Origin: Nemertoderma westbladi
Taxonomy: Eukaryota > Animalia > Xenacoelomorpha
Direction of reading: 5' to 3'
Length of the DNA: 64,000 nucleotides
NCBI GenBank assembly: GCA_032718475.1
Contig: JAUCBJ010000576.1
Coordinates: forward strand, 21,582-85,581
Position 1 is the stretch's first letter. Each line of letters opens with the position of its first letter. The notes under the pieces were generated by a model. The model made no database searches. It saw nothing but the letters and a program-made list of their open reading frames with translations, and was not told the DNA's origin. Below are positions 13,373 to 61,294 of the stretch, piece by piece. The position numbers and the translations under genes were made by a program.

Positions 13373-13377
13373 GCTAA

Positions 13378-23851: not shown

Positions 23852-23929
23852 CTGTTTAGAGTATTTTTATATTTTAGAAACTGTGATTTTTTATATTTTA
23901 TAGAATTAAATCCCATTTTCTGGGAGCGG

Positions 23930-25122: not shown

Positions 25123-26586
25123 ATACAGGCTCACCGGTTCTAGAGGCCGCTGTTCCACGTGGCAAGGAACAGATAACAGATAGAACTCTGTCCGAAGTAG
25201 TGCAGATAATATTGACTCCTTCCCATCTCCTCTCCGCAATTTCTGTCTACTCGCGACTTGTCATCTCTTCGGGATAAGTATTTCGTATAAACTTATTGCA
25301 ATATTCTTCTCTCATTCAATTAATACATAATAGTACAAATAAATTCAATTAATATATTTAATTCACAAGTAATAAACAATTTCTTTTGTTTTTAAAAGCT
25401 GGCCTCACCCGGTCACCTAACAACTCGTGTGGGCAATAAATTTAATAACTAATTCCGTTCTCTGTAAAACTAACAATAGCCCAAAATCATAAAGAGTATA
25501 CTACATATAGTGAGTGATAATTGCACAGCACATAGGGCGATTAATACTGACCATTGGTTGGGCCGTATGGAGAAGAGCCTTTAACAAGAAAGACGCTATT
25601 AATAAAATAATATTGGAATCCAGGGTATATGTTTTTGCCGAAGTTAAACCAATATTATGTATGCCCTTAGTAGCTCGATTTGTACAGGGCCCTGGCAATA
25701 AAATGGGGCAAGCCACGTAATAAGGTAATAAATGAATAATGAGTGGGGCGAGCCACAAAGTAAGTTAAGTGGACAATATATGAAGCACAAATATGAATAC
25801 AATTATTTTCGGGCAGGGATTTTTACACTCCCCCACTATTAATTGGTGAATTAATAGTAACTGCTAATAGAAAAAACTGCGCGGAAATAATAAATATTAG
25901 TATTGTACTAATTAGCAAGTATGAGACAAAATACTGAAGATATATCGAAATGACAATTGTAATTTTACTTGCATAGCAATAAATGTTCTAACAACTAGTT
26001 ATTTATAAAACTGCACGTCACTTTCATGTGCGAAATATCTACTGTACATAATAATAATGTCATGTTGTTAGAAGCCTCTGTAAGAATGATATATTGATCC
26101 CCGCTCCCGGAAAGTTCCAATTTCGATTGTTGTGGAGAATTTGAGATAGTTACCACAACTGACGAGCTCTCCCCCTGTAAAGAGAGTTTTCGTTATTGGA
26201 TCCATATATGAACAGAGTTGGAGATTTCCATGTGGAAATTTCAGTAATCAGATTTCATAACTGTAAAGGAAATAAGCATTAAGGATCAGGGAGATCATCG
26301 CTAAAATCAAACAAGACTCCGGACCTAATCCTATTGTTATCTGTTTCCAATTTTATGAATATATTCTTGACTATTTAGTATACAGTATATGGCGCTGTAT
26401 CATAATAGTGTTACTCATATAATCGCCATAAAGTTGATCAACATCCAATTTTACAAATATTCGTATTAAATTAATCGTTCATCCTATTCATATAATTAGT
26501 GGAATATTAATTAATTATTTACACTTATATATTGATACGAATTGTTATAGATAAACATGACATATGTACCAACAGTATTACAAGTT

Positions 26587-33869: not shown

Positions 33870-34223
33870 CATACCCAGTACGGCAACGAAAACCACCCCA
33901 TTCTTATGGTTTTTCGGGAGTGGATTCAGATAAAGACATAGACGAAGATGGTAGTGAGGCTGACACAGCTGGCAGTGACGACGACATTGGTTAGTGGTAC
34001 CGGTAGTAGCAATGACGACGATGACCGCTTTATGCTCCCTGAATCCAATGTTTGGAAATCGATTGATCCAGACCAGGATCCATTTCAGCCTCACTGTTTC
34101 AATTCAACATCTGGCTGGCGGGGTGTGGATACAACAAATTTTGAAATTGGAGATTATGTTGATATTTTCTTGACTGATAATTTAATTGACATAATTGTAA
34201 AGTGCACCAATCACAGAATCCAC
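33870..34223 (+). pseudogene. piggyBac transposase N-terminal fragment
   Basis: Acidic leader, then WKSID...F..TSG......DYVDIFLTDNLIDIIVKCTN. Interrupted by the BEL-C LTR. Confidence 0.8.
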
Positions 34224-35386
34224 TTTTCGCGCTTTCAGACCTTTAGCAGTTTAACCTGCCAATTTTAGGTGTCCTCTTGTTTATAAATCGACTTTAGCCT
34301 ATAACAAGTATTTAGTGCACATGAAGTTACATTAGCCGAAGCAAGTCTATGCGCGATCATTCACCCACTGTTAAGGGAGACTGGATTCGGGTGCTTTGAA
34401 GTGATTACGGTGCAGACCTACTGTATTATTCGATTGGTCGTTACTATATAATCTCTGACAATATTATTCACTTTCCGGGAAATATTAACAGTTCCTTTAG
34501 GACGTGGCGCTTTAAGTATATAAAACAGAGTTATGACTTATACTAAACACAACTAGATGGCTACTGAGTTTCGTAAATAGCGCATTCTTTAGGAGATGCT
34601 TTATTATCTGTCACACTACTTCACACGACTTCACACTACTTCACACTGATCTGCCGACTGTCACTGAATTTGATCATATATAAGGAGGATAGCAACTGAC
34701 ACATGTAGGGATTATGAAATAGTATTTAATTCACACAAAATAATGTAAGTCGCAATTGCTAAAGGTAACAGGTCCCTCTTACCTTCAGTAATCAAGAAGA
34801 TTGGGGGTTTTATGATTATTTATCGGTATTCTCCAAATATAACAACATATCCATCAATATATAACAATTAATAACAGACAGTAAAATAATGCGGTGAACA
34901 ATCAGTATATGTTACTTATGCAAGTCAGTTCAGCAGTTTGAGTTGATATGTGGATTGAGTTGTCGAGATAATAGATTTACGTTCTTGTAATCAAAGCTAT
35001 CTAATGTTTGGCCAAAGTCTGAAACTTCTACAGAAGCACAGAAGAATTCTAAGCCGGTGTTCTGAGGCTCAGAAAAGGTAAACAAAGACCGTAATGCATT
35101 GCGCGGTTTTACATAGGCCCTTGTCCAACATAAAATGAAAATCGCTCTGATTGGCTGAGCAGAACAAGGAGGTTCCACGTTTACAGAAAATCAGCTGACA
35201 GATTTCGTCATCTGAGCTCCAGTCTTTTAGAGTATTAGGCGCATTGCGGCAAAAAATGACTTGTTATGTCCGCTAAAGCACCTACACGGTACATTGCGGA
35301 GAAAAATGACTTGTTATGTCCGCTAAAGCACCTACACGGTATATTGCGGAGAAAAATGACTTATTATGTCCGCAAAAGCTTTTACA
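34224..35386 (-). repeat. BEL-C 3' LTR (about 1160 bp)
   Basis: Starts TGTAAA after the PPT; about 50-bp x3 repeat at 35241-35380; CCAAT at about 35150; TATATA at about 34680; TCAGT Inr-like at about 34647; terminal CA mutated to AA. Confidence 0.9.
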
Positions 35387-35464
35387 CCGCTCCCAGAAAA
35401 TGGGATTTAATTCTATAAAATATAAAAAATCACAGTTTCTAAAATATAAAAATACTCTAAACAG

Positions 35465-36937
35465 TTAGTCCTTCTTACGTGAACGGCGTTTACGCAGTTT
35501 TTTGAGGCTAGCAAGAGTCCTTTTCTCTTTGGGGTGAGCCACTTTACTAGGAGGGCTATAACTCCTGGGTGAAGGGTGCAATACAATTGCATCGGAAGGT
35601 TTAGGGTTACGGTCGGTGTATCCGCCGGTCGAGGCACCCGGTTGATCGATATCAACCTCAGTGGAGCGAGGTCGAACAACCTTCAGAGCGCGTTTCAGGA
35701 CAGCAGCTCTTACTGGTCCCTGACGAGTCGTCTGCACGAGAGCGGTAGGTGGACAGTGAGTAGTGAGAAATTTCCTCGGTTTGATGGTTCTTTCTAACTC
35801 GTGTTCTCGGGCTCTATATTCATAGGGTCGTCTATGAACTTCCTGTAGTTCTGGATGCGAGTTGATGAACAAGTCACCATATTCCGGATCTTGACGGATG
35901 AAGTTGATCAAGTTATAGAAATTAAGATCATTGGGATTAATGTTCCTGAGATATTTACGAACAAATTTGGTCGAAATATTCTCGCCAACACGCTTCATTA
36001 GTTCGTAACTCGGTGTGCGAGATTTTTGCTCAACGGAAGCAAATAGATACGGGTGAAACGCATAAACTCCTTCATAGGCGGGTCCAGGGTAATATCGATG
36101 ACGTGACTCACAGTGTAGATCCGCGTTCGCTTCCCAGGCTCGAATGTAGCGTAGGGTAATCATTTCATCTACGCTTTCCAGATCTCGGTTGAAAGGGCAA
36201 TCAAAACTTGCATGTCCTTTAAACTGACAATGATGGCATTGAGTCATAAATTGATTAATTGACTGATAAAATGTGTAAGTTATTGAGTCTACAGTACGCA
36301 CAATAGATCTCCATCGTAGGTTGTTCAGGGAAGTAGGAGCAGGGTACGTTGGAGTCCACCAGGGTGAAATGGTCTCGAGATGCGCATAATCGTTCGCGGC
36401 CTCATAATAATTGATGCAACGTTTCCTAGAAACATAATTGGCATGCCGATAATCGTACACGGTGAGACATTGTGGACCTTGATACCATTCCAGGACGTAG
36501 TCGTTGTCACTGCTCCGCGGCACTGTGGGCTGAATCTCCTCGGATTCTAAACATATTGGTTCGTCTTCCAATTGCATAGCTGAGGTAGGTGTAGCTGTCT
36601 CCTCAAGCGAACCCAATGTCTGAACTTCCACGATAGAATAACCCGTGGGGATTCGGGGTCTTTGTATAACAGAGGAATGTAAGTTCTGTATACAAACGTC
36701 CTTGAAAATGGCGAATCCAGCGCTGTCTAACTTCTCAGCAGCTGAGTCTCTTAGGCTGAGCTTGGTCAGAGCGCGGTCCTTGAACTGACTATCAACATTA
36801 CGGAACGGAGTCAGAAAGCACCTAAAGCATTCGAAGCGGATGAATTTATTGTGTTCATCTAGCTTGGCGAGTTTGGTTCCAAGTATCAAGGGATGGGCGC
36901 GTATAGTACGACTGCACAGTACACATCGGCTAGCCAA
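35465..36937 (-). CDS. BEL-C accessory ORF-C: putative C2-C2 finger, CCHC knuckle, basic NLS-like tail; function unknown
   Basis: CVLC...CFRC; CHHCQFKGHASFDC (CX2CX4HX4C); KKLRKRRSRKK. Homologs at 19121-19606 and about 23500-23851. Confidence 0.75.
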   Translation of the reverse strand: MASRCVLCSRTIRAHPLILGTKLAKLDEHNKFIRFECFRCFLTPFRNVDSQFKDRALTKLSLRDSAAEKLDSAGFAIFKDVCIQNLHSSVIQRPRIPTGYSIVEVQTLGSLEETATPTSAMQLEDEPICLESEEIQPTVPRSSDNDYVLEWYQGPQCLTVYDYRHANYVSRKRCINYYEAANDYAHLETISPWWTPTYPAPTSLNNLRWRSIVRTVDSITYTFYQSINQFMTQCHHCQFKGHASFDCPFNRDLESVDEMITLRYIRAWEANADLHCESRHRYYPGPAYEGVYAFHPYLFASVEQKSRTPSYELMKRVGENISTKFVRKYLRNINPNDLNFYNLINFIRQDPEYGDLFINSHPELQEVHRRPYEYRAREHELERTIKPRKFLTTHCPPTALVQTTRQGPVRAAVLKRALKVVRPRSTEVDIDQPGASTGGYTDRNPKPSDAIVLHPSPRSYSPPSKVAHPKEKRTLASLKKLRKRRSRKKD

Positions 36938-37487
36938 CCGGCAAGATCTTGAAGATAGTGTATATAGCTAATGAGGGACGAAGTGGAACACTCATAAAGC
37001 TATAAACGACGCCAGGGGCGGTCACGGTCAATGGTCCGTCAAAGTATAATCGAAAATAATGATCTCCATATACTTGTTGATAGTTGATAGGGTTTCCGAC
37101 TTTGAAATTACATCCATATTCTTGGAAGGCAAGATGTCCGATGGAGGTTCGTTGTACTTTATTGATGCCACTGGGTGTATTGGCATACATAGTTCGGAAG
37201 AAACCTCGGCCTTCTGCCCAGGGAGAAATCAGCTGGGTGTCTACGAAAGGATATGGGATATTCTCCATGTTCCTGAAGTCGTTTTGGAGATCTCCATAAA
37301 CAGATGAGCCGATTTTAAGGATTCTTTCGTTAAACAACATCTCGAGCACTGGCTGGGGTAACATCGATCCATCTATACCCATGACCGGTTTGCGCACAGT
37401 GTCGGTGACGTAGCGCTGCGCGAGTTCGAATTGTCCATGTCGGAGTTTCTTTTGTATCGCGGTGAGAGTCTCACAAAGAATGATCAA
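36930..37487 (-). CDS. BEL-C accessory ORF-B, unknown function
   Basis: 185 aa. Overlaps ORF-A and ORF-C by a few codons, starts at TTG, and is probably part of one frameshifted ORF. Confidence 0.55.
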   Translation of the reverse strand: MIILCETLTAIQKKLRHGQFELAQRYVTDTVRKPVMGIDGSMLPQPVLEMLFNERILKIGSSVYGDLQNDFRNMENIPYPFVDTQLISPWAEGRGFFRTMYANTPSGINKVQRTSIGHLAFQEYGCNFKVGNPINYQQVYGDHYFRLYFDGPLTVTAPGVVYSFMSVPLRPSLAIYTIFKILPVG

Positions 37488-39066
37488 TCACGTCGGAACA
37501 CGCTCGAGTAAACACGTGGGTAGAACCAGCTAGTCCTCGTATATGTATCATGCGCATAGTTCCCAGTTCTCCAACCGGAACGTTACCTTCGTTATCGTAA
37601 GTGACAACTCCATACATTTCGATAACATTAAGAGTTTTGTTCCACTCTTTAGTGGCGTTTTCTAGGGTCATCCCCACCGGATGCCACAAGGTGGCGCATT
37701 CGCTAGTATTAGGTAGATCCCTATACTTCAGATACTGTGTAGTATAAGTCTCTACATCTCCATATCGTTGTATTCTCTCTTCCTCAAATAATACGTCGAG
37801 ATTCCAGTGGACTAATCGAGTTTTAATAAATCCATCGAGATTATACGGAGGCATTATATCCTTCTCTATTCTGGAAACATTGTAGGGTTTTCTGAATGAG
37901 TTTACTTTCACTAACTGATCCAGATGTTTCTGCAGTTGTTCGAGTTCGACAAGATCGAGGGGATTTATTAGTGGTAGAAACCTTAGACTATGTGTAGGAT
38001 CTTCCGGTTTTACCATATAATATTGAGTTAGATTGACATAATAAGGGTGGTCTTTGATCCCATAAAACGAGTTCGGTAAAGGTCTAGCGCGTATGTTGAC
38101 CTCGTGTACCATACGACGGACAAGATCCGCTCGATTGTCCAGAGGTTCAACGAGTATACCGTCAACACGAGCGGCCTCGATTGGCGGATGTTGTAACATA
38201 GGAGCGTCAGCGATAAGATCTCGAGATCTTAGGTTGATATCAACCGGTTGGGGTTGTACCATGGCGAAGAGTTTGTCTCCGAAATGGGGAACCATTGAAG
38301 GATGAATAATGGTTTTGGAATAGAAATCGGTCATAAGTATTTGAGCTTCTGGCTGGGCTAAAGCTGCTTCTTCTCTCTCGTCCATTTCGATATGCTTCTC
38401 CTCGAGCTGATTTTCCTCCGCTTGTTTTTGGAAGCGTTCGTCCAAAAACTCTTGTAGAGAATAGGTTCGTCCAAGTTCGATGTCTTCCTCGAGGTTCTGG
38501 ATTTCTCGATCGAACTGGGGTAAGGCTAATTCCTTTACTGCTTGGACTTGCTGCTGCAATTTATGTTTCTCCAAACAATCGTAAGTTCCTTTTCCGATCT
38601 TCTGCCGAATAGCGTCTAATGCGTTTCGTACAACGCTCTCCTCGATTTCGGTGACGGGTTGTATCGGGGTTAAACCGGAACGATTATACGGGTTGAACGG
38701 TGATATTAGATGTCCACGTCCCAATCCGGCTAGGTATGATGGGCGAATATCTAGAGAGCCCACTACCAGAGTGCCACCGATTAATTGTTCGGGTAACACG
38801 AGATCTTTGAACAGTGAGTACAGTTCAGGAGGATCCGTTATACTATTAGGATCAAGAGTTTGACGTCTCACTAGGGAATGAGGAGGTCTGACCGAGTATT
38901 CCGGAACTCTGATCATCGGTTTATTTAAGGATCGTTTGAGTCGAGCGAGTGTAGGTGATACGTCGAACAAGTTTCGCTCGAAACTCCCGTAAGTATAGCG
39001 AGTAAAACTGTGTTTAGCGCAATGTCTCCGCGGATGTTTATGTCTTTCCGTTGGCTGGTTGGGTCT
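37471..39066 (-). CDS. BEL-C accessory ORF-A, unknown function (N-terminus cut by RTE insertion)
   Basis: About 530 aa open, with a coiled-coil segment. Second copy at about 22956-23490. Confidence 0.7.
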   Translation of the reverse strand, partial: RPNQPTERHKHPRRHCAKHSFTRYTYGSFERNLFDVSPTLARLKRSLNKPMIRVPEYSVRPPHSLVRRQTLDPNSITDPPELYSLFKDLVLPEQLIGGTLVVGSLDIRPSYLAGLGRGHLISPFNPYNRSGLTPIQPVTEIEESVVRNALDAIRQKIGKGTYDCLEKHKLQQQVQAVKELALPQFDREIQNLEEDIELGRTYSLQEFLDERFQKQAEENQLEEKHIEMDEREEAALAQPEAQILMTDFYSKTIIHPSMVPHFGDKLFAMVQPQPVDINLRSRDLIADAPMLQHPPIEAARVDGILVEPLDNRADLVRRMVHEVNIRARPLPNSFYGIKDHPYYVNLTQYYMVKPEDPTHSLRFLPLINPLDLVELEQLQKHLDQLVKVNSFRKPYNVSRIEKDIMPPYNLDGFIKTRLVHWNLDVLFEEERIQRYGDVETYTTQYLKYRDLPNTSECATLWHPVGMTLENATKEWNKTLNVIEMYGVVTYDNEGNVPVGELGTMRMIHIRGLAGSTHVFTRACSDVIDHSL

Positions 39067-39067
39067 A

Positions 39068-40872
39068 GGGCCGCAGGCAATCATCCCAGGCATGGAAATC
39101 GATCAATCTGCTTACTGGGCGGAAAAGCCAACCAACCACCAAGGTTAAGGCTGAATCACCAGCCGATCGCCTCAATGGTTGGAAAGCCCACTTTGAAAAG
39201 CTCCTCAATAATGACAGGGTATTGCCTGGTAACTTTATAGAAGTAAAAGTGTCTGAGTCTGTACTCCCAGATATTCCCATTGGCGATATCTCCTTTGCAG
39301 AAGTGAAGGCTGCTGCAAAGAGCATTAAGACCAATCGTGCCAGTGGAGTAGATGGTGTTCTCCCTGAGGTCTTTAAAATACCTGAGTGTTTAAAGCTCAT
39401 CTATCCCATCATAGTAGACATGTACCGTACAACAAGAGTCCCACAAGAAATGAAAACAAATAAGTTGGTGCCAGTTCCCAAGAAGGGCAACCTAACACTC
39501 TATGGTTCTTTTCGGGGAATCTCATTGATCTCGATTGCTGCAAAACTATACAATAGAATTCTATTAAATCGCATCAGGGATCCCATTGAGAGACTGCTAC
39601 ATGGAAATCAGAATGGGTTCCGTAAAGGTCGTGGGACCATGGAGCCCATTTGGCACTTAGAAGGATAATTGAAGAGTTATCAAAAAAGAAAGACAGGCAT
39701 CTGGCTGTTATCTTTGTTGACTTCTTCAAGGCCTTTGATTCAGTCTCTCGCTCACGTATGTTCAACATACTTTCATTATATGGGATTCCTGATGAAATTA
39801 TTGCAGCAATCAGATCAGTATACGATGGTTCGACAACATTTGTGTCTACTGTTGACGGTGACACAGAACCATTTGAAGTGTTATGGGGTGTCCTCCAAGG
39901 AGACACACTTGCACCATTCTTGTTCATTATTGTGGTTGACTATGTTCTACGCATGTCCTTAGATCATCATAATGATGATGGGGTTATGATAACTCCACCT
40001 ACTGGCTCCAGAAGTCGAGGAAATCCTGCCAAGTACCTAACTGATCTAGACTTTGCTGATGACTTAGGAGTACTCTCAGAATCATTAGAGGGAGCCCAGC
40101 AGCTCCTCAGCTCATTAGAACATGCTGCTTCTACTGTTGGTCTTTTTATTAACTTCAGAAAGACCAAAATTCTGACAGTTAACTTTGAAAGTCCTCAGCA
40201 AGTCTCTGATCGGATGAGCATAAGCTCAAAGGATGGTCTGCTTGAGCATGTGGACGACTTCTGTTACCTGGGATCATGGATCCGGAAGTCAGGTGAGGAC
40301 CTTCGAATACGTAAGGGAAAGGCATGGACAGCCTTGAATAGGCTTTCCAGGATTTGGAAGTCACCTAGAATTAATCGGAAACTTAAGGTCCGATTATTTA
40401 GAGCAGCAGTAGTTCCAGTACTCCTCTACGGGAGTCCATGCTGGGCTCTAACTGCTGAGGACACCAAATCTCTGGATGGCACATTCACAAGAATGCTACG
40501 CCGGGTACATTGTGTCAAGTACAATGCACACATCTCCAACCAGACACTATATAACATTGGAGGTGTCTCATTGGTTCCCCCAAGCTTGACACTAGAACGA
40601 AATCGCCTCTGTTTTGCAGGACATTGCTTTCGCCGTGAGGACCAGCCAGTGCATAATCTTGTACTTTGGCAGCCTCATGGAGTGAATAAGCATGGTGGAC
40701 AGCCCATGACTTTCTTGCGACGCATCTTAAAGGACACTGGCCTTAAAGATGCGGATGATCTAGCAAATGTCATGGGTGATAGGGAGTTGTGGCGGTGCAA
40801 TTTTGTTGACAAGCCGGCACAGCATTCTTAAAAATGCAGCTGCAATGCAGCATGCCTATCCTAGTAGTAGTA
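39068..40872 (+). mobile_element. 5'-truncated RTE-like LINE (RT domain)
   Basis: KKGNL...FRGISL, QNGFRKGR, FVDFFKAFDSV, GVLQGDTLAPFLF, DFADD, FCYLGS, VLLYGS; (TAG)n tail at 40862-40872; frameshift near 39650. Confidence 0.92.
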
Positions 40873-43800
40873 TTTTCGGTGAGGAGGTCGATTGTATTTT
40901 CCTCGTCGAATAATTGGTTGATATCGTCATTATCTGAGAAGTATGGTGTTCCCTCAGTTGTGGTCTCTCCCTCACTGATTTCTTCTTCCCATTCACTCAC
41001 CTGATGTACCTTGTCGTTAGGTAGTCTTTCCATGAGTGTTACTCTCATCCCTACTCTTGTTCCTACTGAGTTCCTACTTGAGTGTTCCTACTCTCATTCT
41101 TCCCGCATATGTTTGTAATGGTTGCGGTCGAGCAGGCCGTTTTTCTAATGTCTCAAGCGCCTCATGCGCGTTTTGGCCGATCAATATCTGCACCCCTGGG
41201 TAGTTGGTGTTGAATCTAGGGATATCATGCTGCTGGTTAAAATGGTCTTCATCCCAGTTGTAAGGTTCTACTTGGCTGGTAGCAAAGTTCTTTATCGCCA
41301 CCATTTTTACTGACCTTATGCTATGTTCTCCTAGTTCATCCTGGGGAGTGGACAACGCGCCTACATAGTAGTCTGTAGCTACTGTGGATTTCCAAACCTG
41401 CATAATTCCTGAAAGATTCAACTTAGTTCGGAACTTGGGTTGTCCAGCAAAGATGTCTTTGGCTAGTTCTTTGTCGATGAATGTTCCTGTGCTGCCGGAG
41501 TCCAGGAGGGCGTTTACTATAAAACTCTTACCTGGCCCATGGACTCTCAGCTGAACTACTGGGAATTCCCGGATTCCGACGTTGGAAGTTGGCGCTTTCC
41601 AAGATGGTTGTCGGTCCAGAATAGTCAGTTGCGTTTCGTTATCGGTTTCAGTCTCATACATAAGCGCTCGATACACTGCGGTGTTTATCATATAACAGGA
41701 TTCGATTTCGTCGGAGAATTCGTCCGTGTAAAATCCTTCCATCTCAGAACTGTGGTCAGTGTCGTTCACATCACTGAATTGGACATGTAGTTCGGGCTCA
41801 CTTACCTGACTCGTGCGGGTTCTTTCAAATTCTGTGTGCAGCAAGATATGATGTTTCGCACCGCACTTAGCGCACCTCGTGTCTGAGTAACAGGTCCGCC
41901 GTTGGTGTCCTTGTCTGAGACAATTATAACACAACCGCTTATCCCACATGACATCACGTCTATCCTTTAGGGATTTCTTCAAGAATTCATCACATCCACT
42001 TAAACGATGGGGCCCGTCGCACAATGCACATTTGGGTTTGATGTTACTTACTTTAACCTATGTTGTGTTGTGCACACTTGTTCTTTCCTCGGGCTTTCTT
42101 CCATGAATTATCTTAGGAGACGTAGGAGGAGTTTTTGTTACCTGTTCTCTCCTGTCACTGGTTCGAGACTTAGATTTACTTACGTCTTTCGGTGTTTTGT
42201 TGACATAGTAAGATTTTTCGGTGTCTTTCCCGCTGTTCTCCTCTTGGGAGGTTTGGCTTTCGCCGTCGTCTGTATAACACACTGGTGTTACCTTTCTCCT
42301 AGAAACGGGTTTTTCACTCACCTTATTCTCCGGTGTCTTCTCTCGGGTCTGCTTTAGGAGCTGTAATCTTACCTCTCCATTTAAGAATGACATGAGATCA
42401 GCCATGGTAGGGTCTCTTTGTTGCTGGTCCATCATATAGAGAACTCTTTTGTCCCAACGAGTACCTACTCCACCCTTCGGCAAAGTAGATGCCACGGCTC
42501 CAACAACCATAGAACTCTGATATTCATTAGACTTACCTAGCCAATCCAACTGTCTACAGATCTCCTGGATCTTATCGGAAAATTCTATAATCCCGCTGCT
42601 AAGGAACTTTCGGGGCGCTACTAATTTCGCATACAAATACCTAGCTATGTTAGTCCTATTACCATACCTGATGTTTAGTGTATCCCAAACTTGTCTTAAT
42701 CCATCTGGATGTCCAATAAACTTTAACGCCATTAACTTGGGAGGTCCTTCCAAGCACTCGATGAGGAATCTAAGTTTCTCTCCGTGGGATAGTATGGAAC
42801 TCTGTATGTTATCTTTATAATACTCATTAAAAGGTAACCATTTCATCTCATCTCCATTGAACTTGATGATCTCTCCCACCTATACCGCTTGACGGGCTTC
42901 GGTTCTAGCCATTTGACGCGTAAAACTTTCTTGGGCCATCGTATTATTTAATATCGAGTTATCGGTATATAAATTTCTCGGATTATGATCAGGTCTATAT
43001 GGAATATCATTATCAACAGGTTTATAATTACCCTTAATAGGGTTCACTATAGGAGTTTCTACTTCACTAGCAGTATAGATGCATGTAGGCTACACACCTT
43101 GCGCATGAAATACTTCAGACCTAACAGGTTGACACATTGTTACAGGGGGTGGTGGTATACCCCTTTGTATATTTACCAATTTATCGCGTTCTAACGCGAT
43201 ACTCTGCTGCACTTCTTGCAACTCTAACCTACCCTCTCTTACTGTTCCCTTTAACTGCTGAACAGTCCCCTCCAACTCTCGGACCTGTTGGGAGGTACGT
43301 ATACGATGTTCCTCCATCTGCCCGAGCAGGAGATCCATCCCCCGCCATCGCTCATCCACCCATTCTACCTCCGAAGCGGGAGCCGCCAACATAGTAGCGG
43401 GTAGACGAGGGACGACGGGCGACAAATCGTTCATGTCTTGCTCGGCGTCCAGGACCGGGATTGATTCAGGGGCTATTCTACTGGGCACAGGTAGTTTAGT
43501 ACTGTGCAAAGGGAATTTAGAGTTAGGTTCTGGAAGTACAGGGGTCTCTATCACAGAGGGGGTGGCTTCAAGAACAGGCCTAATTATTTCAGGCTCATCT
43601 ACTATAGTACGGAGTCTTTCTACTCTAATAATTTGATCTGTAGGCTCAGGATTACTTAAATCTACACTGGCTAGTTGCCTTCTCACAGCTGGGGGCAAAT
43701 TAGGCAATTTCTGCCGGTGCAGCACCCTTCTACGTCCGCTGGAACGAGATTTATTTCCTCTACCTTCAGGATCTGTTGTATCTCCTTCATTTATGGGGTG

Positions 43801-46800
43801 TCCTCCAAGGAGACACACTTGCACCATTCTTGTTCATTATTGTGGTTGACTATGTTCTACGCATGTCCTTAGATCATCATAATGATGATGGGGTTATGAT
43901 AACTCCACCTACTGGCTCCAGAAGTCGAGGAAATCCTGCCAAGTACCTAACTGATCTAGACTTTGCTGATGACTTAGGAGTACTCTCAGAATCATTAGAG
44001 GGAGCCCAGCAGCTCCTCAGCTCATTAGAACATGCTGCTTCTACTGTTGGTCTTTTTATTAACTTCAGAAAGACCAAAATTCTGACAGTTAACTTTGAAA
44101 GTCCTCAGCAAGTCTCTGATCGGATGAGCATAAGCTCAAAGGATGGTCTGCTTGAGCATGTGGACGACTTCTGTTACCTGGGATCATGGATCCGGAAGTC
44201 AGGTGAGGACCTTCGAATACGTAAGGGAAAGGCATGGACAGCCTTGAATAGGCTTTCCAGGATTTGGAAGTCACCTAGAATTAATCGGAAACTTAAGGTC
44301 CGATTATTTAGAGCAGCAGTAGTTCCAGTACTCCTCTACGGGAGTCCATGCTGGGCTCTAACTGCTGAGGACACCAAATCTCTGGATGGCACATTCACAA
44401 GAATGCTACGCCGGGTACATTGTGTCAAGTACAATGCACACATCTCCAACCAGACACTATATAACATTGGAGGTGTCTCATTGGTTCCCCCAAGCTTGAC
44501 ACTAGAACGAAATCGCCTCTGTTTTGCAGGACATTGCTTTCGCCGTGAGGACCAGCCAGTGCATAATCTTGTACTTTGGCAGCCTCATGGAGTGAATAAG
44601 CATGGTGGACAGCCCATGACTTTCTTGCGACGCATCTTAAAGGACACTGGCCTTAAAGATGCGGATGATCTAGCAAATGTCATGGGTGATAGGGAGTTGT
44701 GGCGGTGCAATTTTGTTGACAAGCCGGCACAGCATTCTTAAAAATGCAGCTGCAATGCAGCATGCCTATCCTAGTAGTAGTATTTTCGGTGAGGAGGTCG
44801 ATTGTATTTTCCTCGTCGAATAATTGGTTGATATCGTCATTATCTGAGAAGTATGGTGTTCCCTCAGTTGTGGTCTCTCCCTCACTGATTTCTTCTTCCC
44901 ATTCACTCACCTGATGTACCTTGTCGTTAGGTAGTCTTTCCATGAGTGTTACTCTCATCCCTACTCTTGTTCCTACTGAGTTCCTACTTGAGTGTTCCTA
45001 CTCTCATTCTTCCCGCATATGTTTGTAATGGTTGCGGTCGAGCAGGCCGTTTTTCTAATGTCTCAAGCGCCTCATGCGCGTTTTGGCCGATCAATATCTG
45101 CACCCCTGGGTAGTTGGTGTTGAATCTAGGGATATCATGCTGCTGGTTAAAATGGTCTTCATCCCAGTTGTAAGGTTCTACTTGGCTGGTAGCAAAGTTC
45201 TTTATCGCCACCATTTTTACTGACCTTATGCTATGTTCTCCTAGTTCATCCTGGGGAGTGGACAACGCGCCTACATAGTCTGTAGCTACTGTGGATTTCC
45301 AAACCTGCATAATTCCTGAAAGATTCAACTTAGTTCGGAACTTGGGTTGTCCAGCAAAGATGTCTTTGGCTAGTTCTTTGTCGATGAATGTTCCTGTGCT
45401 GCCGGAGTCCAGGAGGGCGTTTACTATAAAACTCTTACCTGGCCCATGGACTCTCAGCTGAACTACTGGGAATTCCCGGATTCCGACGTTGGAAGTTGGC
45501 GCTTTCCAAGATGGTTGTCGGTCCAGAATAGTCAGTTGCGTTTCGTTATCGGTTTCAGTCTCATACATAAGCGCTCGATACACTGCGGTGTTTATCATAT
45601 AACAGGATTCGATTTCGTCGGAGAATTCGTCCGTGTAAAATCCTTCCATCTCAGAACTGTGGTCAGTGTCGTTCACATCACTGAATTGGACATGTAGTTC
45701 GGGCTCACTTACCTGACTCGTGCGGGTTCTTTCAAATTCTGTGTGCAGCAAGATATGATGTTTCGCACCGCACTTAGCGCACCTCGTGTCTGAGTAACAG
45801 GTCCGCCGTTGGTGTCCTTGTCTGAGACAATTATAACACAACCGCTTATCCCACATGACATCACGTCTATCCTTTAGGGATTTCTTCAAGAATTCATCAC
45901 ATCCACTTAAACGATGGGGCCCGTCGCACAATGCACATTTGGGTTTGATGTTACTTACTTTAACCTATGTTGTGTTGTGCACACTTGTTCTTTCCTCGGG
46001 CTTTCTTCCATGAATTATCTTAGGAGACGTAGGAGGAGTTTTTGTTACCTGTTCTCTCCTGTCACTGGTTCGAGACTTAGATTTACTTACGTCTTTCGGT
46101 GTTTTGTTGACATAGTAAGATTTTTCGGTGTCTTTCCCGCTGTTCTCCTCTTGGGAGGTTTGGCTTTCGCCGTCGTCTGTATAACACACTGGTGTTACCT
46201 TTCTCCTAGAAACGGGTTTTTCACTCACCTTATTCTCCGGTGTCTTCTCTCGGGTCTGCTTTAGGAGCTGTAATCTTACCTCTCCATTTAAGAATGACAT
46301 GAGATCAGCCATGGTAGGGTCTCTTTGTTGCTGGTCCATCATATAGAGAACTCTTTTGTCCCAACGAGTACCTACTCCACCCTTCGGCAAAGTAGATGCC
46401 ACGGCTCCAACAACCATAGAACTCTGATATTCATTAGACTTACCTAGCCAATCCAACTGTCTACAGATCTCCTGGATCTTATCGGAAAATTCTATAATCC
46501 CGCTGCTAAGGAACTTTCGGGGCGCTACTAATTTCGCATACAAATACCTAGCTATGTTAGTCCTATTACCATACCTGATGTTTAGTGTATCCCAAACTTG
46601 TCTTAATCCATCTGGATGTCCAATAAACTTTAACGCCATTAACTTGGGAGGTCCTTCCAAGCACTCGATGAGGAATCTAAGTTTCTCTCCGTGGGATAGT
46701 ATGGAACTCTGTATGTTATCTTTATAATACTCATTAAAAGGTAACCATTTCATCTCATCTCCATTGAACTTGATGATCTCTCCCACCTATACCGCTTGAC

Positions 46801-47697
46801 GGGCTTCGGTTCTAGCCATTTGACGCGTAAAACTTTCTTGGGCCATCGTATTATTTAATATCGAGTTATCGGTATATAAATTTCTCGGATTATGATCAGG
46901 TCTATATGGAATATCATTATCAACAGGTTTATAATTACCCTTAATAGGGTTCACTATAGGAGTTTCTACTTCACTAGCAGTATAGATGCATGTAGGCTAC
47001 ACACCTTGCGCATGAAATACTTCAGACCTAACAGGTTGACACATTGTTACAGGGGGTGGTGGTATACCCCTTTGTATATTTACCAATTTATCGCGTTCTA
47101 ACGCGATACTCTGCTGCACTTCTTGCAACTCTAACCTACCCTCTCTTACTGTTCCCTTTAACTGCTGAACAGTCCCCTCCAACTCTCGGACCTGTTGGGA
47201 GGTACGTACACGATGTTCCTCCATCTGCCCGAGCAGGAGATCCATCCCCCGCCATCGCTCATCCACCCATTCTACCTCCGAAGCGGGAGCCGCCAACATA
47301 GTAGCGGGTAGACGAGGGACGACGGGCGACAAATCGTTCATGTCTTGCTCGGCGTCCAGGACCGGGATTGATTCAGGGGCTATTCTACTGGGCACAGGTA
47401 GTTTAGTACTGTGCAAAGGGAATTTAGAGTTAGGTTCTGGAAGTACAGGGGTCTCTATCACAGAGGGGGTGGCTTCAAGAACAGGCCTAATTATTTCAGG
47501 CTCATCTACTATAGTACGGAGTCTTTCTACTCTAATAATTTGATCTGTAGGCTCAGGATTACTTAAATCTACACTGGCTAGTTGCCTTCTCACAGCTGGG
47601 GGCAAATTAGGCAATTTCTGCCGGTGCAGCACCCTTCTACGTCCGCTGGAACGAGATTTATTTCCTCTACCTTCAGGATCTGTTGTATCTCCTTCAT
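39881..47697. repeat. Tandem duplication of about 3.9 kb (39881-43790 and 43791-47697)
   Basis: Copies differ visibly only by a 3-bp indel (~41366) and a SNP (~43302/47209). Confidence 0.95.
43791..44782 (+). mobile_element. Duplicated 3' half of the RTE-like LINE
   Basis: Identical to 39881-40872. Confidence 0.92.
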
Positions 47698-49249
47698 CAG
47701 AGGATGTAAATCCCTGTCTCTTGGGAGTAGATCGACTTAGCAGCTGCATATGAGTAGCTGTTCTCTGTTTATTTAAGTAATCTTGCTTCACTTGAAGATT
47801 TTCCAACTCTAATTGGGCTGTCTCTTCAGATGCCTTCCGTTCTGCTTCTACCACTGCCTCTGCTGCTTTTCTTTCCGCTTCTGCCGGTGCCGCTTTTCTT
47901 TCAGCCTCTGCCGTTGCCGCTGCCGCTGCCACTTTTCTTTCAACTTCTGCCGCTGCCGCTTTTCTTTCCGCTTCTGCCGCTGCCGCTGCCGCTGCTGCTG
48001 CCGCTGCCGCTGCCACTGCCGCTGCCGCTGCCACTTTTCTTTCAACTTCTGCTTCTGCCGCTGCTGCTGCCTTTCAGTCTTCTATCCGTTTTTTCTTTAA
48101 TTGTTCTTCCTGTTCCCTAGCGATGAGGATGCTTTCATCTAATTTAGCCTGCTCAGCGGCTAATATTTCTGCATCTAACGAGTCCAACACAAATTTGGCC
48201 CCTTCACTATTAGGGTGAAGTCCAGCTAGCCTTCTCCTTAGCTCTTTGTCACCTATGAATCGTTGATAGTCCGACAGATAGATGTCAATAGCATCCTTCT
48301 TCTGAGGTTTCTCTGATATAGCTTCGCTTTCCACCTGAGAAAAGGTAGCGTCTGTTGACTCTCCATGGGTCATGCGCTCAGTTAGCTGAGCTTTCCATTG
48401 TGTTGTTCCCTGGACTTTAAGACTCACCCGTTGGAACCAAGTCTTTATGGCGACTTGCAACGACGTATCTTGGCTTCTCTTCGAGGCTTCCTCAAAGGCT
48501 GAAAGGATTAGTCTGATCCGTAAAATTTGTTCCCACACTTGATAAAGCAGCTCTCCCTGCTCTTGAGGTCCTTGACGTTGTTGAAACAGGTGTTCCTCTA
48601 AGAGCTCCAAAGAGCTGAAGAATCCCTGGACATATCCCGCTGCCGACCTCTTCCACACAGCTAGATCTCGAGTATCCTTTACTACTCCCATCCTGTATAA
48701 GTCCTCCCAGGCAGCTTCCGATAAGTTAAACGGGAGTCCGGGTCCGGGGAAGTTCCATTGTGTCTCGACAATAGCCTTCAGTTCCTCCATTGTGTATCCC
48801 GCATAACTGTCCTTGGTCGATCGCTTACTTCTCGCCCAATCGATTTGATGTTCTTCCACAGCTATCAACACTCTAGTGAGTACGGCTCCAGGAAGAATTA
48901 GAAGTGGATCCGGATAAACCGCTTCTGCCATCCTTGCTCTGATTTCGGGTGTCAACTCTACAGTGTCTGAACTACTGGAGTTATCTGGCTGTTGAGAAAT
49001 AAGTTCTCGGTTCGGTCGCTGCTGCTGTTTAACAGCTGCCTCTTGGTCCCGCTTGACTTGAGCCCTAGTGCCTATGATAGACCGATGGTGCTTGACTAGC
49101 CTAGGGTCTGATACTACTACTGGAGGGATGACCTTTCTTACAGTAGGAGGGGACTTGGACTTGGACTTCAGATGTTCTATACTTTTATCAGACTCACAGA
49201 CTGTTCTTTCTAGGAGACTATCTGACAGTGTTTGCTTTGTGTCAGCCAT
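44783..49249 (-). pseudogene. BEL-C Gag-protease (second partial copy at 40873-43790)
   Basis: AEAERKAAA repeats (47830-48070); IIKFNGD..KWLPF, EKLRFLIECLEGPP (DUF1759-like); CALC..H....C, CYNCLRQGHQRRTC, CAKCGAKHHILLH; LLDSGSTGTF. Frameshift near 48075 and in-frame TAG stops. Confidence 0.9.
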
Positions 49250-49387
49250 GTTTGATTGTACAGTTGAATGCCTACTACTATAACGACAGTTAAAGCAAGT
49301 CTTGTAATTCAGTATCCACTGTAAGCCTAGTAATTAATTACCGATACCGTTACTCAGTGTAACGTGATATATATACAATATATTAAA

Positions 49388-49650
49388 ATACCGGTATACA
49401 CTTATAATATACATATAAGTATTATTACAGACTAGAATTAGTCACAGAATACCGGTATATAATTTCAGCCTAAATATATAGAAATAAATACAATAAGCCT
49501 ATCGTAAATACCGGTATACAGCATACACTTATAGTATATATATATATATAAGTATTATTATAGACCAGGATTGGTTACAAAATACCGGTATATAATTTCA
49601 GCCTAAATTTATAGAAATATATATAATAAGCCTATCGTAAATACCGGTAA
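49388..49650. repeat. About 125-135-bp tandem repeat in the BEL-C 5' leader
   Basis: Two units containing aataccggtata...aagcctatcgtaaataccggta. Confidence 0.8.
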
Positions 49651-51224
49651 TGTCAATTATTTTATAATAACTGAATTTCTGAATTTTAGGGTTACTTTCC
49701 TTTACTTTATTACTGTTATTTAAGCACTAGTTCAACTGATATTAAGACCTAATTGATGTATAACAGGCGTAGTATTTTATAAATCAGTTTGAGTTGATTT
49801 ATAATATATTATGTACCCGTACAAGGGTTTTTGTCAATGTTTGAAATAAATGTTATTATTTCTGGATAAGGAGTCACTACACAGAAGCTGAACGCTCTCA
49901 GTGGAGTGCTACCTGTTAGACACTAAAACAAATTATTCTACTTTACTAAGTTACTTATCACTACAAATTACATATAATTACTGTGTGAGATTACAATCTC
50001 TAAATAAACACCAAAAGTTACACGTACAAATTTTAGGGTAATTTTACAGGAAATCTACAAACCAGCCTAACAAGGAGTTAGAATTTCTGGTTACTACAAA
50101 CGGACAGGATACTATGGTATTTGAAAACAATAAAGCAGTAGTAAGTAAATTGCGTTGTCCAGATAAGAAAATACCACCGTCTGATGACTTATAGTCTTAA
50201 ACTATAAGTTCTACATTATGTACCCAGAGTGTCCTTACCTAGAAGTTAATTACCACAGCCAACCAGAGCTAACGTGCCTATTAACCACTTTACAACACAA
50301 ATATACTGCCTACACACTAATTACTTTCGGAAAGCACTGTACGCTAAACCCTAAATTAGGTACAAGTACTTATACAACAAATAACCAGCAGTTAAATATA
50401 CTTGTACAGCTAAAAGAACCACGGTATCTGCTGGAGTGACCAGAGCATAAAATCACCAGTCTTTACCTATGCCAAGCAGCCTTGATGTAGTACCGGGGTT
50501 AATTTAACTATAACGGTATGTATAACAAGCACAATTACTGTAGGAATAAACTTGGGGGATTGTAGGTTGCGAATACTCACATAGACTCTGAATAATAAAT
50601 ATTATGCTACCCGTGCAGACTATACAAACAAAATACAGACCAAATGCTGGCAGACTACTATCAAGCCTAAATAAACTACAGTATATGCAGACTCCGAAAT
50701 GGTTAGTTAGTAGGCGTTCTAACCGAGTAGTACGACTTATTGTTTCGGGGGGGGGGGGGGGGGGGGGGATTTACCTTACAACACTGGATGCCCCCACCTT
50801 CCTAACTAGTACTTTATTGGACATACACTCTACACACACTGCAGTCGCTTCAGACCTAACAACAGTCAGACAACAATCTAGCCTACAAATTATTTGTACA
50901 ATTTGAGCGGGCTTACACGCCTTCTGCTCAATATCATACTTACAGATAAATAAAACTGACAGAAATAAATAAGCTCTAAAAGAAACAAGGGGTGTACAGT
51001 CCCTAATCTCTTAAACAGCCTACCAATATACAATATCACAATCGAAATAATACTAGTACCGGTAAGTACCGGTTCAGGTGGTTAGGTAGTTAGGCCTACA
51101 GGTTACTGTCCGACCGGTACATTCGAATTTATTGCCTACATGCAATCAAGAATCAGAAATCGATTATTGTTCTTACCAGAACAATAGACAACTATATTTA
51201 TTGCCTACTGTGCAATCAAGAGTT

Positions 51225-51236
51225 TAAATCTATTAT
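51225..51236 (-). promoter_or_regulatory. BEL-C PBS position (ATAATAGATTTA), not tRNA-type
   Basis: Immediately follows the LTR end ...GCGCGAACA, lacks TGG, and is complementary to LTR positions 34968-34979. Confidence 0.7.
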
Positions 51237-51732
51237 TGTTCGCGCTTTCAGACCTTTAGCAGTTTAACCTGCCAATTTTAGGTGTCCTCTTGTTTATAAA
51301 TCGACTTTAGCCTATAACAAGTATTTAGTGCACATGAAGTTACATTAGCCGAAGCCAGTCTATGCGCGATCATTCACCCACTGTTAAGGGAGACTGGATT
51401 CGGGTGCTTTGAAGTGATTGCGGTGCAGACCTACTGTATTATTCGATTGATCATTACTATAATCTCTGACAATATTATTCACTTTCCAGGAAATATTAAC
51501 AGTTCCTTTAGGACGTGGCGCTTTAAGTATATAAAACAGAGTTATGACTTATACTAAACACAACTAGATGGCTACTGAGTTTCGTAAATAGCGCATTCTT
51601 TAGGAGATGCTTTATTATCTGTCACACTACTTCACACGACTTCACACTACTTCACACTGATCTGCCGACCGTCACTGAATTTGATCATATATAAGGAGGA
51701 TAGCAACTGACACATGTAGGGATTATGAAATA
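51237..51732 (-). repeat. BEL-C 5' LTR, upstream part deleted
   Basis: Matches 34224-34722 with only a handful of differences. Confidence 0.93.
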
Positions 51733-53099
51733 TAATGATGGTAATGGTCCGGTACTTGCCATAAAATTCTGCGACAAAAGAGTCGTTTACTTTATTACAA
51801 CCTCCGATAAAGCCGACCTTGTAGATAAGACCCGCTACCTACCCGCAGGACAAACTCAAGACTTTAAGAAACCACAACCTATTGATAAATACAACTATAA
51901 CATGGGTGGAATAGATTCTTCGGATTCAATGATTTCTTCGCGTACATATGTTCGCAAATGTCAGAAATGGTTTGTCAAACTAGGAATCCATTATATTCAG
52001 CACCTTGTATTGAATAGTTATATCCACTACCGGGCTGAAAAGAAACCGAAACATCTAACATTCAGTATGTACCTCTTGGATGCTATCGATTACCTAACAC
52101 AAGTACCAACACGAGCCGTCCCTCACAAGCGTCAATCTTTGCCAGCTGTGCCAACCACTCACAAGTTGGTCAAACTGGAACCATCTGGAAAGGTACTGTC
52201 CACGCAGAAGCGTTGCCGTGTGTGTTGGAAAAATCGTACTTACAAAAGATCGCGCTATATTTGCCCAGCTTGTCCTGATAAGCCTGGACTTTGTCGAACC
52301 TGCTTTGGAGAATATTCTCACTCAAATTGATTATAGATTGGTAAATTGGTAATAATTATTTTGTTTTTATTAGCGTGTTGCTGTTATTATTTTGTTGAAT
52401 CATTATAATTGGCCTGTTGCTGTTACCTATTATTTTGTTGAATCAAAGAATCGATCAATCAATCAATAACTTGTGATAAAAAATATTTTTTATCTACAAA
52501 ATTTTTTATTTTTCTACAAAAAGTTTTTGGGAGAGAAAATGTAAAGAAATATGTTTTCCTATTGAAACAAAAATCGATCAATAAATTGATCACCCAAAAT
52601 CAATAACTGATCAATAAATCAATAACTCGAAATCAAAAATATTTTTTTATCTCGAAATTCGATTTCTACATAATGTTTTGGGTCAAAAAATGTAAAGAAA
52701 TATATTTTCTTATTGAATCAAAGAATCGATCAATAAATTGATAAATAAAAATCAATAATTGATCAATCAATCAATAAATTTTGCTCAAAAATGTTTTTTT
52801 ACTTAAAATTCAAATTCTACATAAAAATTTAAGTCAGAATATGTAAAAATTATTTTTAATTATGAACTATTGTACAAATCAATTAATTGATAAATTAATT
52901 GATCAAAATCAATAACTAATCAATAAATCGATAAATTTGAAAAAAATTAAAAATCATCCAGAAATTCGGAATCTACAGATCATTTTGTGTAAGAAAAGTA
53001 AAATGGACATTTCTGAATAAAACTTTCAATTTTTCCAATTTTATGGAGCATATGGAACAGTTATTTTAAAGCACTGGGCTGGAAAGGGTAATGGGTTAA
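51733..53099 (+). mobile_element. piggyBac 3' part: transposase C-terminus (to 52330), subterminal repeats, right end
   Basis: DKRVV.FITT, KP..ID.YN..MGGID..D, RK..KW, NSY, CRVC..R..C..C...LC..CF..H; about 165-bp repeats at 52430-53000; ends ...GGAAAGGGTAATGGG-TTAA. Confidence 0.9.
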
Positions 53100-55628
53100 C
53101 ATTAAGAAGATTATGATTATGAAATTCAGGAGAGGTGGCTGACTGAGAAAGGCGGACGTATTTTACTGTGGTGGAAAGAAACTAACTGTTTGTAATGATT
53201 ATCAGTATTAGGGGGTTGTTGCCCTAAAATCAAGCTGGACCTTTACTCGTCATTTAAAGAAAAAAGATGGTAAAGGCAGCTGTAGCTAGCGCTATGGGCA
53301 AGAATTTACAATCACTATCTCTAGGAGGGGTAGTTATAAAACCCGAAAATGACGAAATGATCAACGAAAATATTGAACTTATCAAACAATCTGCAAAATC
53401 TCGCTTTCCAGTACGATAGGTATTATTAGAAGGCACACTTTACATTTTTAAATTAATAAAATCCGATAATTTCGCCCCATTTTCGACCTTAAAAGTAATT
53501 TAATACCAAATACTGTCTGCTGGTTGGTTGTTAGGTGTTAGCTGTTGACCAATGGCGGCTTGGATGAAATCAGTGTACTGGAGTATTGGTCTGGTGCAAT
53601 ACAGATGTGGTGCTACAGATGTACTGATGTACAGCGTACAGGCCTACAACAGTACAACAGCCCTATCAACCTACAGGAGCTGTTGCGCTGACAGACAGAG
53701 AGATAACATCCCATGGGGTAGGGCGTAGGGGGTACAGGTTAAGGATTTTTTCTGGACTATCAGATACCGGTAGAAGATGATTAGGCCTATTAAAAGAAGG
53801 AACGATGGCGATGGCGTCTATCAAACCCGGAATGATGGCGATGGAGAATGTTAAACCCAGAAGCCAGAACGATGGCGACAGAGCCTATTAAATCCGGAAC
53901 GATGGCGACGGAGTCTATGAAAACCCAGAACGATGGCGATGGAGTCTATTAAACCTGGAACGATGGCGATGGAGTCTATTAAACCCAGAACGATTAGACG
54001 GAGTCTATTGAACCCGGAACGATGGCGACGGAGTCTATTAAACCCGGAACGATGGCGACGGAGTCTATTAAACCCATAATGATGGCAACGGAGTCTATTA
54101 AACCCAGAACCATGGCCTCTTTTAAACCTGGGACGTTGGCGACGGAGTCCATTAAACCAAAGGCCTACCGAATTAGGTAAAGGATGGATTCCCTGAGGGA
54201 GAACGAGTTTACAGCGGTTTTGATCCAGTTTGGGGTAGGGCGGGTTGAGTTGACCTCAGGTCACCCAACCCACCTATCTAGAGACGAAACAACCTAACTA
54301 GATACGAACTCCGCGCCCTGAACTGAAGTAAAAGAGCAAGAGTTTAATTTTAGTACAACTGTAACTAATTCTGGTTAATTTTATTTAAACTTTATTTTGT
54401 ACAGTTGTTGTGATGGTTTAATTTCGGTGTAAAATGTAGCATGTAGTAAACTACTGTAATATAAATACATATATATTGCATAATTACTGTATAATATTGT
54501 AATTTGTCATATTAATTTGGTGCGGGATTAGCAAGTAACTGTGTTCAATTAGCTCTTGTTGGAGGCCTTCTGACTCCTGCCACTGTCAGTTTTGTGGCGC
54601 GCCTGCCACAGATATTCTACACTCTACATTCTCACTTCTACATTCTACCGGACAATCTATCCCATCTGCGTCTCACTTTTCACTTGCAGTCCTTACAAGA
54701 TTCGTCACTTAATTTCTCTTAATTAATTCTTACTTTAATCATTTTGCGATCTTTCTTCGACTTATTGGTTTTATTTATTTTATACTACCCGTTGGGTAAA
54801 TAAAGATAACAATTTCATAGGAGAGTCAGTCGAATATGTGTAGCGGTGAATACATGTTTCACTTTAACAATGATAACGGCGACAATAATAATCAACATTG
54901 ACGTTAAAAGCAATGACTCGAATTAATACCGCACTGATATGATTCATATGTAGTGTTAAAATCATAAAAGTTACCAGCAGCTCTTGACATAAATTGACAT
55001 GACATTTTTTATAAAGTGATTGACAGATTGATGTTAAATAATTTCAAAATTATCAATATAAAAATATATTATTATGATTTTAGTATTGGCGACAAACCAG
55101 TCTGACTTCGAAACTCTCTTGTTCAATGTATAATCGTATGGGGTTATTTGATTGGCATCACAATCCCTCGGGGTTACGGGGTTTAATAGACTCAGCATTC
55201 GATCGCTCTCGTAATTCCGGGTTTAATAGACTCCGTCGCCATCGTTCCGGGTATAATCGACTCAGTCGCCATTGTTCCGAGTTTAATAGACTCCGTCGCC
55301 ATCATTCCGGGTTTAATAGACACCGTCGCCATCGTTCCAGCTTCCGGGTTTAATAGACTCCGTCGCCATCGTTCCTTCTTTTAATAATCATCTTCTACCA
55401 GTATCTGATAGTCCAGAATAAATCCTTAACCTGTACCCCCTACGCCCTACCCCATGGGACGTTATCTCTCTCTCTGTCAGCGCAACAGCTCCTGTAGGCT
55501 GATAGCAGGGCTGTTGTACTGTTGTGGGCCTGTACATCAGTACATATGTAGCACCACATCTGCAATGCACCAGACCAATACTGCAGTACACTGATTTCAT
55601 CCAAGCCGCCATTGGTCAAGAGCTAACA

Positions 55629-57605: not shown

Positions 57606-57793
57606 TAACACCTAACAACCAACCAGCAGACAGTATTTGGTATTAAATTACTTTTAAGGTCGAAAATGGGGCGAAATTATCGGATTTTATTCCACTTAAT
57701 CATGGGAAAACAATTGTATGTAAAATTCAAGTAACACGATTTATGTTTACTTATTATTTTTATTTCCACCAATTCCATGAATTTACTACTATA

Positions 57794-61210: not shown

Positions 61211-61294
61211 GTTTCTGAAAATCTGGTAGCTGGAAAGGTTGTAAAATTTTGATTTAGAAATATTATATTTTATTGTTATTTTGCTGATCTAAAT

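Follow-up and report, generated by a model that had tools for sequence, protein, structure and literature searches.

A primer-binding site complementary to its own long terminal repeat in a BEL/Pao-type element of Nemertoderma westbladi

Elements of the BEL/Pao type (Belpaoviridae) are described as carrying an 18-nucleotide (nt) primer-binding site (PBS) for tRNA-Arg or tRNA-Gly and as being primed by host tRNA, the same description calling their replication poorly understood (ICTV, the international committee for virus taxonomy, PMC8742986). Reports of self-priming exist for Tf1/sushi, Tcn1 and the TAR lineage of Copia (PMC6317226 and PMC4600332, in their accessible parts); in Tf1 the PBS is paired by the first 11 bases, and the cut by ribonuclease H (RNase H) falls between the 11th and the 12th (PMC7175516, accessible part). 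Here we analyze BEL-C, an element with long terminal repeats (LTRs) that lies on the reverse strand at 34224-51732 of a 64,000-nt stretch of DNA from the xenacoelomorph Nemertoderma westbladi (contig JAUCBJ010000576.1, positions 21,582 to 85,581; hereafter the window, whose coordinates are used throughout). Next to its 5' LTR, BEL-C carries a complement of its own LTR that is anchored at the LTR boundary, has no site there for a tRNA 3' end, and has relatives with the same arrangement in other letters. We consider it probable that BEL-C is self-primed like Tf1, from the 5' copy of a contiguous LTR segment and not from a host tRNA.

BEL-C shares with Belpaoviridae (Semotivirus) LTRs within the range of 0.2-1.2 kb, a polypurine tract and a gag with DUF1759, and its neighbours and relatives carry Pao-type pol; it differs from them, together with most relatives tested, in the absence of a tRNA PBS. 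In this respect it resembles Tf1 and Tf2 of Schizosaccharomyces pombe, Tj1 of S. japonicus and the Tf1/sushi and Tcn1 elements of Ty3/gypsy, which have no tRNA PBS and pair about 11 nt with their own LTR. However, the Tf1 group is a chromovirus lineage of Ty3/gypsy, of which BEL-C, having a gag of BEL/Pao type, is not a member. Moreover, Tf1 is primed by the 5'-most 11 nt of its mRNA, whereas the segment of BEL-C is a candidate lying 744 nt from the LTR end, and in most relatives of BEL-C, unlike the Tf1 group, the segment is split by a predicted intron. The BEL-class element Cer7 of Caenorhabditis elegans has been proposed to encode its own primer, with an internal tRNA-like unit and a tRNA-type PBS. 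BEL-C differs from it by having its partner in the LTR and no tRNA-like gene, since ARAGORN found 0 genes in the window and Rfam gave 0 matches at E 1 in 34100-52000. Self-priming is likewise predicted for the TAR lineage (Houba, Osr-1) of plant Ty1/copia, which belongs to another superfamily and another kingdom (PMC6317226, accessible part). The literature, parts of which were accessible, yielded no report of self-priming in BEL/Pao and none of a splice-built primer, although Repbase and GyDB entries and supplements may hold earlier remarks; the accessible parts of PMC3601003, PMC8220671 and PMC6934838 added nothing on these subjects, and the main texts of two BEL/Pao papers (PMC3118150, PMC554778) mention neither primer, PBS nor tRNA.

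Pairing between the PBS position and the LTR of BEL-C

The 12 nt immediately after the 5' LTR, which occupy the PBS position (51225-51236, reverse strand), complement 34979-34968 of the 3' LTR without a mismatch when read from 51236 to 51225. The latter segment, also on the reverse strand, corresponds to LTR positions 408-419 and is the candidate self-primer, with its predicted 3' end at 34968. Beyond a 3x3 loop, an additional helix arm of 5 base pairs (bp) connects 34983-34987 (reverse strand) with 51217-51221. A preliminary description of this DNA had reported the same letters, coordinates and succession of 12 pairs, 3x3 loop and 5 pairs, and all of them re-read as it had given them. Its further statements that no tRNA site follows the 5' LTR and that the segment ends exactly at the LTR boundary are equally borne out: TGG is absent from the first 40 nt after the LTR, there is no 18-nt PBS for the 3' end of tRNA-Arg or tRNA-Gly, and the LTR end of BEL-C (...GCGCGAACA) is independently fixed by the 3' LTR of a sister copy (23930-25122, forward strand), which terminates at 25122 with the same nine bases. 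This end is not a guess, because the bases that follow the sister LTR belong to a different repeat, that of the BEL-B element.

Chance accounts poorly for the match. The complement of the 12-mer occurs a single time on the element's strand in the window, and among dinucleotide shuffles of the LTR only 3/20,000 reach 12 nt at offset 0 (35/20,000 with offsets 0-5), while, tested on the real LTR, 12 nt are attained by 10 of the 121,738 other positions in the window. When splice junctions are also allowed, the score of 12 is equalled by 2/1000 PBS shuffles. The segment 34979-34968 is also the best duplex partner of the PBS within the LTR, with -9.6 kcal/mol over 12 nt and -15.3 over 20 nt, and the 12 nt compare with the approximately 11 nt of own-LTR complementarity that characterize Tf1/sushi elements. 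In the local fold around it the PBS lies unpaired between hairpins (z -1.8, 10/200 shuffles folding as well); the fold around the LTR 12-mer is no better than that of shuffles (z -0.07). The unit formed by LTR end and PBS is tandemly duplicated 69 nt downstream (51104-51241, reverse strand), the second and degenerate unit spanning 51104-51172 with a period of 69 nt and one mismatch in the 11-mer; contigs of the family mostly seem to have a single unit.

Copies of the family in the same organism were surveyed in Logan contigs from four runs, drawn from three studies and no more than three samples, and compared with 50800-51740. The matching contigs, 6785, 1974, 4014 and 81 in the four runs, show that the BEL-C family is multi-copy, even if contig numbers are no copy number. 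Among the joints listed as ending in the PBS region, five of six keep 11-13 nt after the LTR and the sixth keeps 4; in the four family variants with letters shown, the sequence after the first 11-13 nt differs. At 51162, within the duplicated second unit, the base that pairs with the LTR accounts for 99-100% of depth in three runs. These joints are supporting but not conclusive evidence, because the variants are part-listed and the local duplication shapes the calling of joints. The additional 5-bp helix was considered as a family feature and rejected, its PBS-side arm not being kept in the four variants with letters.

The sister homolog of the primer segment (24372-24383) differs from that of BEL-C at 3 of 12 sites, and the sister LTR pairs at best 5 nt with the BEL-C PBS. 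Such divergence fits self-priming only if the sister PBS co-varies, as we predict; if the system works, the first difference in the sister PBS must fall at position 5, the point at which the sixth joint departs (one contig). The predicted sister PBS (reverse complement of 24373-24383) has no other occurrence in the window. The identity between BEL-C and sister falls to 25/68 at 34900-34967, directly past the predicted primer 3' end. The sister fragment itself (22956-25122, forward strand) is flanked on either side by a 1.67-kb copy of the 3' end of BEL-B, the whole spanning 21267-26774, and is a nested insertion plus duplication.

Primer-binding sites of related elements

The preliminary description had proposed to compare PBS-LTR complementarity across the family with shuffled controls. 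We ran this comparison on metagenome contigs, from which alignment of the reverse transcriptase (RT) retrieved 80 BEL/Pao loci, 36-45% identical to the RT of BEL-A, another BEL element of the window. Direct repeats were found in 39 of the 80 loci and not in the other 41; 11 repeat-bearing loci were excluded as circularly permuted, truncated or duplicate families. In 16 loci the LTRs were treated as end-anchored (L003 and L036 end at a contig edge), leaving 14 once the duplicates L023 and L046 were dropped. Pairing was searched at offsets 0-4, either as a contiguous match or across a GT-AG junction with consensus-like sites. The outcome agrees with self-priming: 11 of the 14 end-anchored relatives pair 10-15 nt of their PBS with their own LTR, each result being matched by 0-6/1000 PBS shuffles. 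Ten of these do so via a GT-AG junction and one (L021) contiguously, while for L010 and L073 a looser acceptor filter was needed to obtain 11 and 10 nt. Of these two, L073 has TGG one base past its LTR (55-70) and looks tRNA-primed, its 10-nt junction match using a weaker donor.

The correspondence is specific to each family. In a swap matrix, scores of at least 10 were obtained with the own LTR in 12/15 cases and with foreign LTRs in 9/210, six of the latter falling within L009, L015 and L035, a trio of related families. A blind search of further loci, in which only the LTR start was known, reached at least 10 nt in 9/12 (L014, L052 and L067 repeat families already counted); among reverse-strand controls 5/34 did so, none via a junction. 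From the swap matrix and the blind search it follows that the PBS letters vary by family and track the own LTR. Self-priming as put forward in the preliminary description is thus well supported at the level of sequence. Contiguous pairing like that of BEL-C is present in L021, L059 and L068, which are scattered among the spliced relatives in a quick maximum-likelihood (ML) tree; repeated intron loss may have occurred among them. A search of viral contigs with the LTR-end pattern gave no match, and no BEL RT relatives were confirmed among them.

The geometry of the pairing was compared in 19 relatives together with BEL-C. With offsets fixed after the matches were seen, the paired segment of every positive element stops within 0-4 nt of the LTR boundary, and the primer end is A-pyrimidine in 19/20 elements, BEL-C included. 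The predicted LTR introns (n=16) measure 71-426 nt and their donors begin with GTAAG in 14/16. In 16/19 relatives a poly(A)-signal word comes after the primer, and their segment therefore appears to lie in R or at the R border. A TATA-like word is found 31 to 135 nt above the paired segment in 5/19 relatives; given these distances the primer need not be the capped end, and the TATA box upstream would place the segment in the 5' portion of the transcript. L028, whose 3' LTR ends at 6864, has its TATA box 31 nt above the paired segment, which would leave no more than ~5-8 nt of first exon ahead of the donor.

As judged from these comparisons, BEL-C is one member of a wider system of self-complementary primers in BEL/Pao, and likely the intron-less form of the splice-built primer system of its relatives. 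A broader scenario, in which a large BEL/Pao branch left tRNA priming and lets the spliceosome build the primer, the intron having been lost in BEL-C, L021, L059 and L068, seems to us evenly balanced between true and false. BEL-A was rejected as support: at its candidate LTR end (12522), for which no second copy provides an anchor, only 7 nt pair at offset 0, a 10-nt match overlaps the LTR end, and the blind search yielded nothing convincing. After this candidate 5' LTR end (region 12470-13377, reverse strand) come two spacer bases and then a GT start similar to the PBS of the relatives, with no TGG. BEL-B has no 5' LTR in the window.

Possible priming route and competing explanations

For the self-priming of BEL-C we envisage the following course. 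Transcription of an intact copy would begin within the 5' LTR, at LTR position 408 or further upstream; the segment would then fold onto the PBS, the pairing of which is evident from the letters, and bring its 3' end to the LTR boundary. By analogy with Tf1, the RNase H accompanying the RT of an intact family member would cut past the paired segment and free a 3'-OH, from which minus-strand strong-stop DNA of ~745 nt would be made and jump to the 3' R region. In most relatives the primer would exist only once the LTR intron is removed. The preliminary description had considered a separate short RNA, an mRNA from an upstream transcription start site and a circularised genome as sources of the primer; the upstream start appears favoured, because the segment of the relatives lies in the 5' part of their transcript.

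The promoter signals of BEL-C are distributed on both sides of the segment, at distances close to those that had been estimated: it begins 408 nt into the LTR, 175 nt below a CCAAT box (35150-35154, measured from 35154) and 286 nt above a TATATA word (34682). The CCAAT box, on the reverse strand and kept in the sister LTR, is a candidate upstream promoter element. TATA-like and initiator (Inr)-like words are located downstream of the segment at 34641-34682 (reverse strand) and are also kept in the sister. A strong splice-donor-like site is found at 34777-34785 (reverse strand, LTR position 605), upstream of this TATA; as it would be useless without a higher start, transcription probably begins further up. 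The label 'U3' for the BEL-C 12-mer is unproven. Alternative starts are described for Tf2, the upstream one including the self-primer and the downstream one omitting it (PMC5341516, accessible part), and by analogy could explain the downstream TATA/Inr of BEL-C.

Several observations weigh against self-priming of BEL-C or against its membership in the system of the relatives. The PBS-LTR duplex of 11-12 bp is AU-rich and weak (-8.0 to -9.3 kcal/mol). The primer end lies 744 nt from the LTR end in BEL-C and 66-247 nt in the 19 relatives, and all five TATA-like words of BEL-C are downstream of the segment, none being present ~30 nt upstream of it. In the BEL-C copy the primer 12-mer is present only in the 3' LTR; its position at the RNA 5' end is deduced from LTR identity because the 5' LTR is truncated at 51732, so that this copy combines a 5' LTR devoid of the segment with the lack of BEL RT, RNase H and integrase. 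Conservation of the segment does not visibly exceed that of its surroundings, as 9/12 sites are identical between BEL-C and sister compared with 75/107 just upstream. BEL-A and BEL-B group in a branch of their own (support 99), separate from all 80 loci, in the quick ML tree of 82 RT rows, and BEL-C is tied to these RT-bearing elements of the window by 21-32% gag/protease identity only. No convincing partner was obtained for L003 with strict or looser junction and contiguous searches, nor for L011, L019, L061 and the PBS of BEL-A in the blind search. Finally, the start site, cleavage and primer of BEL-C are predictions from its sequence.

Some of these points would suit a pairing that is real but has another role, such as packaging, dimerisation or translation control, or that in BEL-C is due to chance or a relic; the outlying geometry, the weak duplex, the lack of excess conservation with respect to the sister and the duplicated PBS unit would all be compatible with it. 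We nevertheless consider this improbable, for in all positive elements the pairing stops no further than 0-4 nt from the LTR boundary, a position needed by nothing but a primer, and it stands in place of the tRNA site. Self-priming of BEL-C through splicing, from a donor at LTR position 188 (35199) to an acceptor before position 935 (34452; 51463 in the 5' LTR), would bring the primer end to ~225 nt from the LTR end, within the range of the relatives, and employ an acceptor region kept in the sister. The 188/935 junction also yields the same 11 complementary nt, a length reached by 19/1000 LTR shuffles. However, the donor is weak and has no counterpart in the sister LTR, in contrast with the GTAAG that opens 14/16 donors of spliced relatives, the acceptor with its poor pyrimidine tract does not pass the strict filter, and the longer contiguous match is left unexplained; this route is consequently very unlikely.

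Equally little credit is due to a start at the downstream TATA/Inr, whereby the sole primer copy, in the 3' U3, would pair end to end or via a dimer partner RNA and be cut there. The TATA/Inr pair is indeed kept in the sister and no TATA-like words lie upstream of the segment, yet cutting within U3 would break up the template and make a further jump necessary, the segment of the relatives is placed in R or at its border (poly(A)-signal word after it in 16/19), and the strong donor-like site above the downstream TATA suggests a higher start. Least probable is priming by a host RNA (a tRNA half, an internal tRNA segment or another small RNA) with an incidental LTR match, since, even if TGG-less half-tRNA priming is known in some Copia lineages (PMC6317226, accessible part), the PBS letters differ by family and follow the own LTR, and the 12-nt match would still have to be explained.

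Self-priming across many BEL/Pao families would depart from the textbook tRNA priming of BEL/Pao and, if true, would extend the Tf1 mechanism to the third LTR superfamily and to animals at scale. Self-primed BEL/Pao elements would then be free from silencing by 3'-tRNA fragments, and their being missed by PBS-based LTR annotation would be accounted for. The splice-built primer predicted for the relatives would couple host splicing to priming, making removal of the LTR intron a switch for reverse transcription, and the accessible literature offered no counterpart for it.

Anatomy of BEL-C and neighbouring features

The 3' LTR of BEL-C (34224-35386, reverse strand, 1163 nt) starts with TG right after a polypurine tract (35387-35394, reverse strand) that is identical in the sister copy. 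The 5' LTR is a remnant comprising the 3' 496 nt of the LTR (51237-51732, reverse strand), identical to the 3' LTR in 489/498 alignment columns, with 7 mismatches and one 2-nt gap. About 667 nt of it have been lost, because a piggyBac-type transposase on the other strand lies beyond 51732; its C-terminal part (51704-52330, forward strand; DDE_Tnp_1_7, zf-Tnp_2) abuts the truncated LTR. The LTR terminates in CA in the 5' copy and in the sister, and in AA, not CA, in the 3' copy of BEL-C. The element as a whole has the TG...CA direct-repeat LTRs and polypurine tract typical of BEL/Pao.

The gag (DUF1759, E 2.9e-12 in Pfam), zinc-finger and protease region (44984-49333, reverse strand) is broken by in-frame stops. 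It is of BEL/Pao type, matching the BEL elements of the window that carry Peptidase_A17 and DUF5641 with BLASTP E values of 1e-12 to 1e-20. A tblastn search of 34224-51732 with the pol of BEL-A detected no BEL RT, RNase H or integrase, the place of which is occupied by a fragment of non-LTR RT of the long interspersed nuclear element (LINE) type (39069-40831, forward strand). Judged by its repeats and genes, BEL-C is a defective LTR retrotransposon derived from BEL/Pao. A tandem duplication of 3.9 kb (39881-47697, 99.9% identical), which covers gag-protease and part of the LINE fragment, may be a recent event or an assembly artefact. Three extra 3' open reading frames (ORFs) of 543, 185 and 500 amino acids extend over 35465-39102 (reverse strand), in DNA partly common to the sister at 82-89% identity. 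The last one has a CCHC-like motif, and a basic C-terminus was noted among the three; the two large ORFs have no Pfam family and Atlas searches gave no usable match for them. They possibly encode an accessory protein.

The region flanking the 3' LTR (33990-34223, forward strand) may resemble a piggyBac N-terminal part, Pfam giving no match. Elsewhere in the window, 13378-18430 (reverse strand) contains ORFs resembling those of non-LTR retrotransposons, with a long array of 30-nt (10-codon) repeats at 16233-18000. Several long inverted and tandem repeats at 53455-57691 and 60580-62405 are probably non-autonomous DNA transposons.

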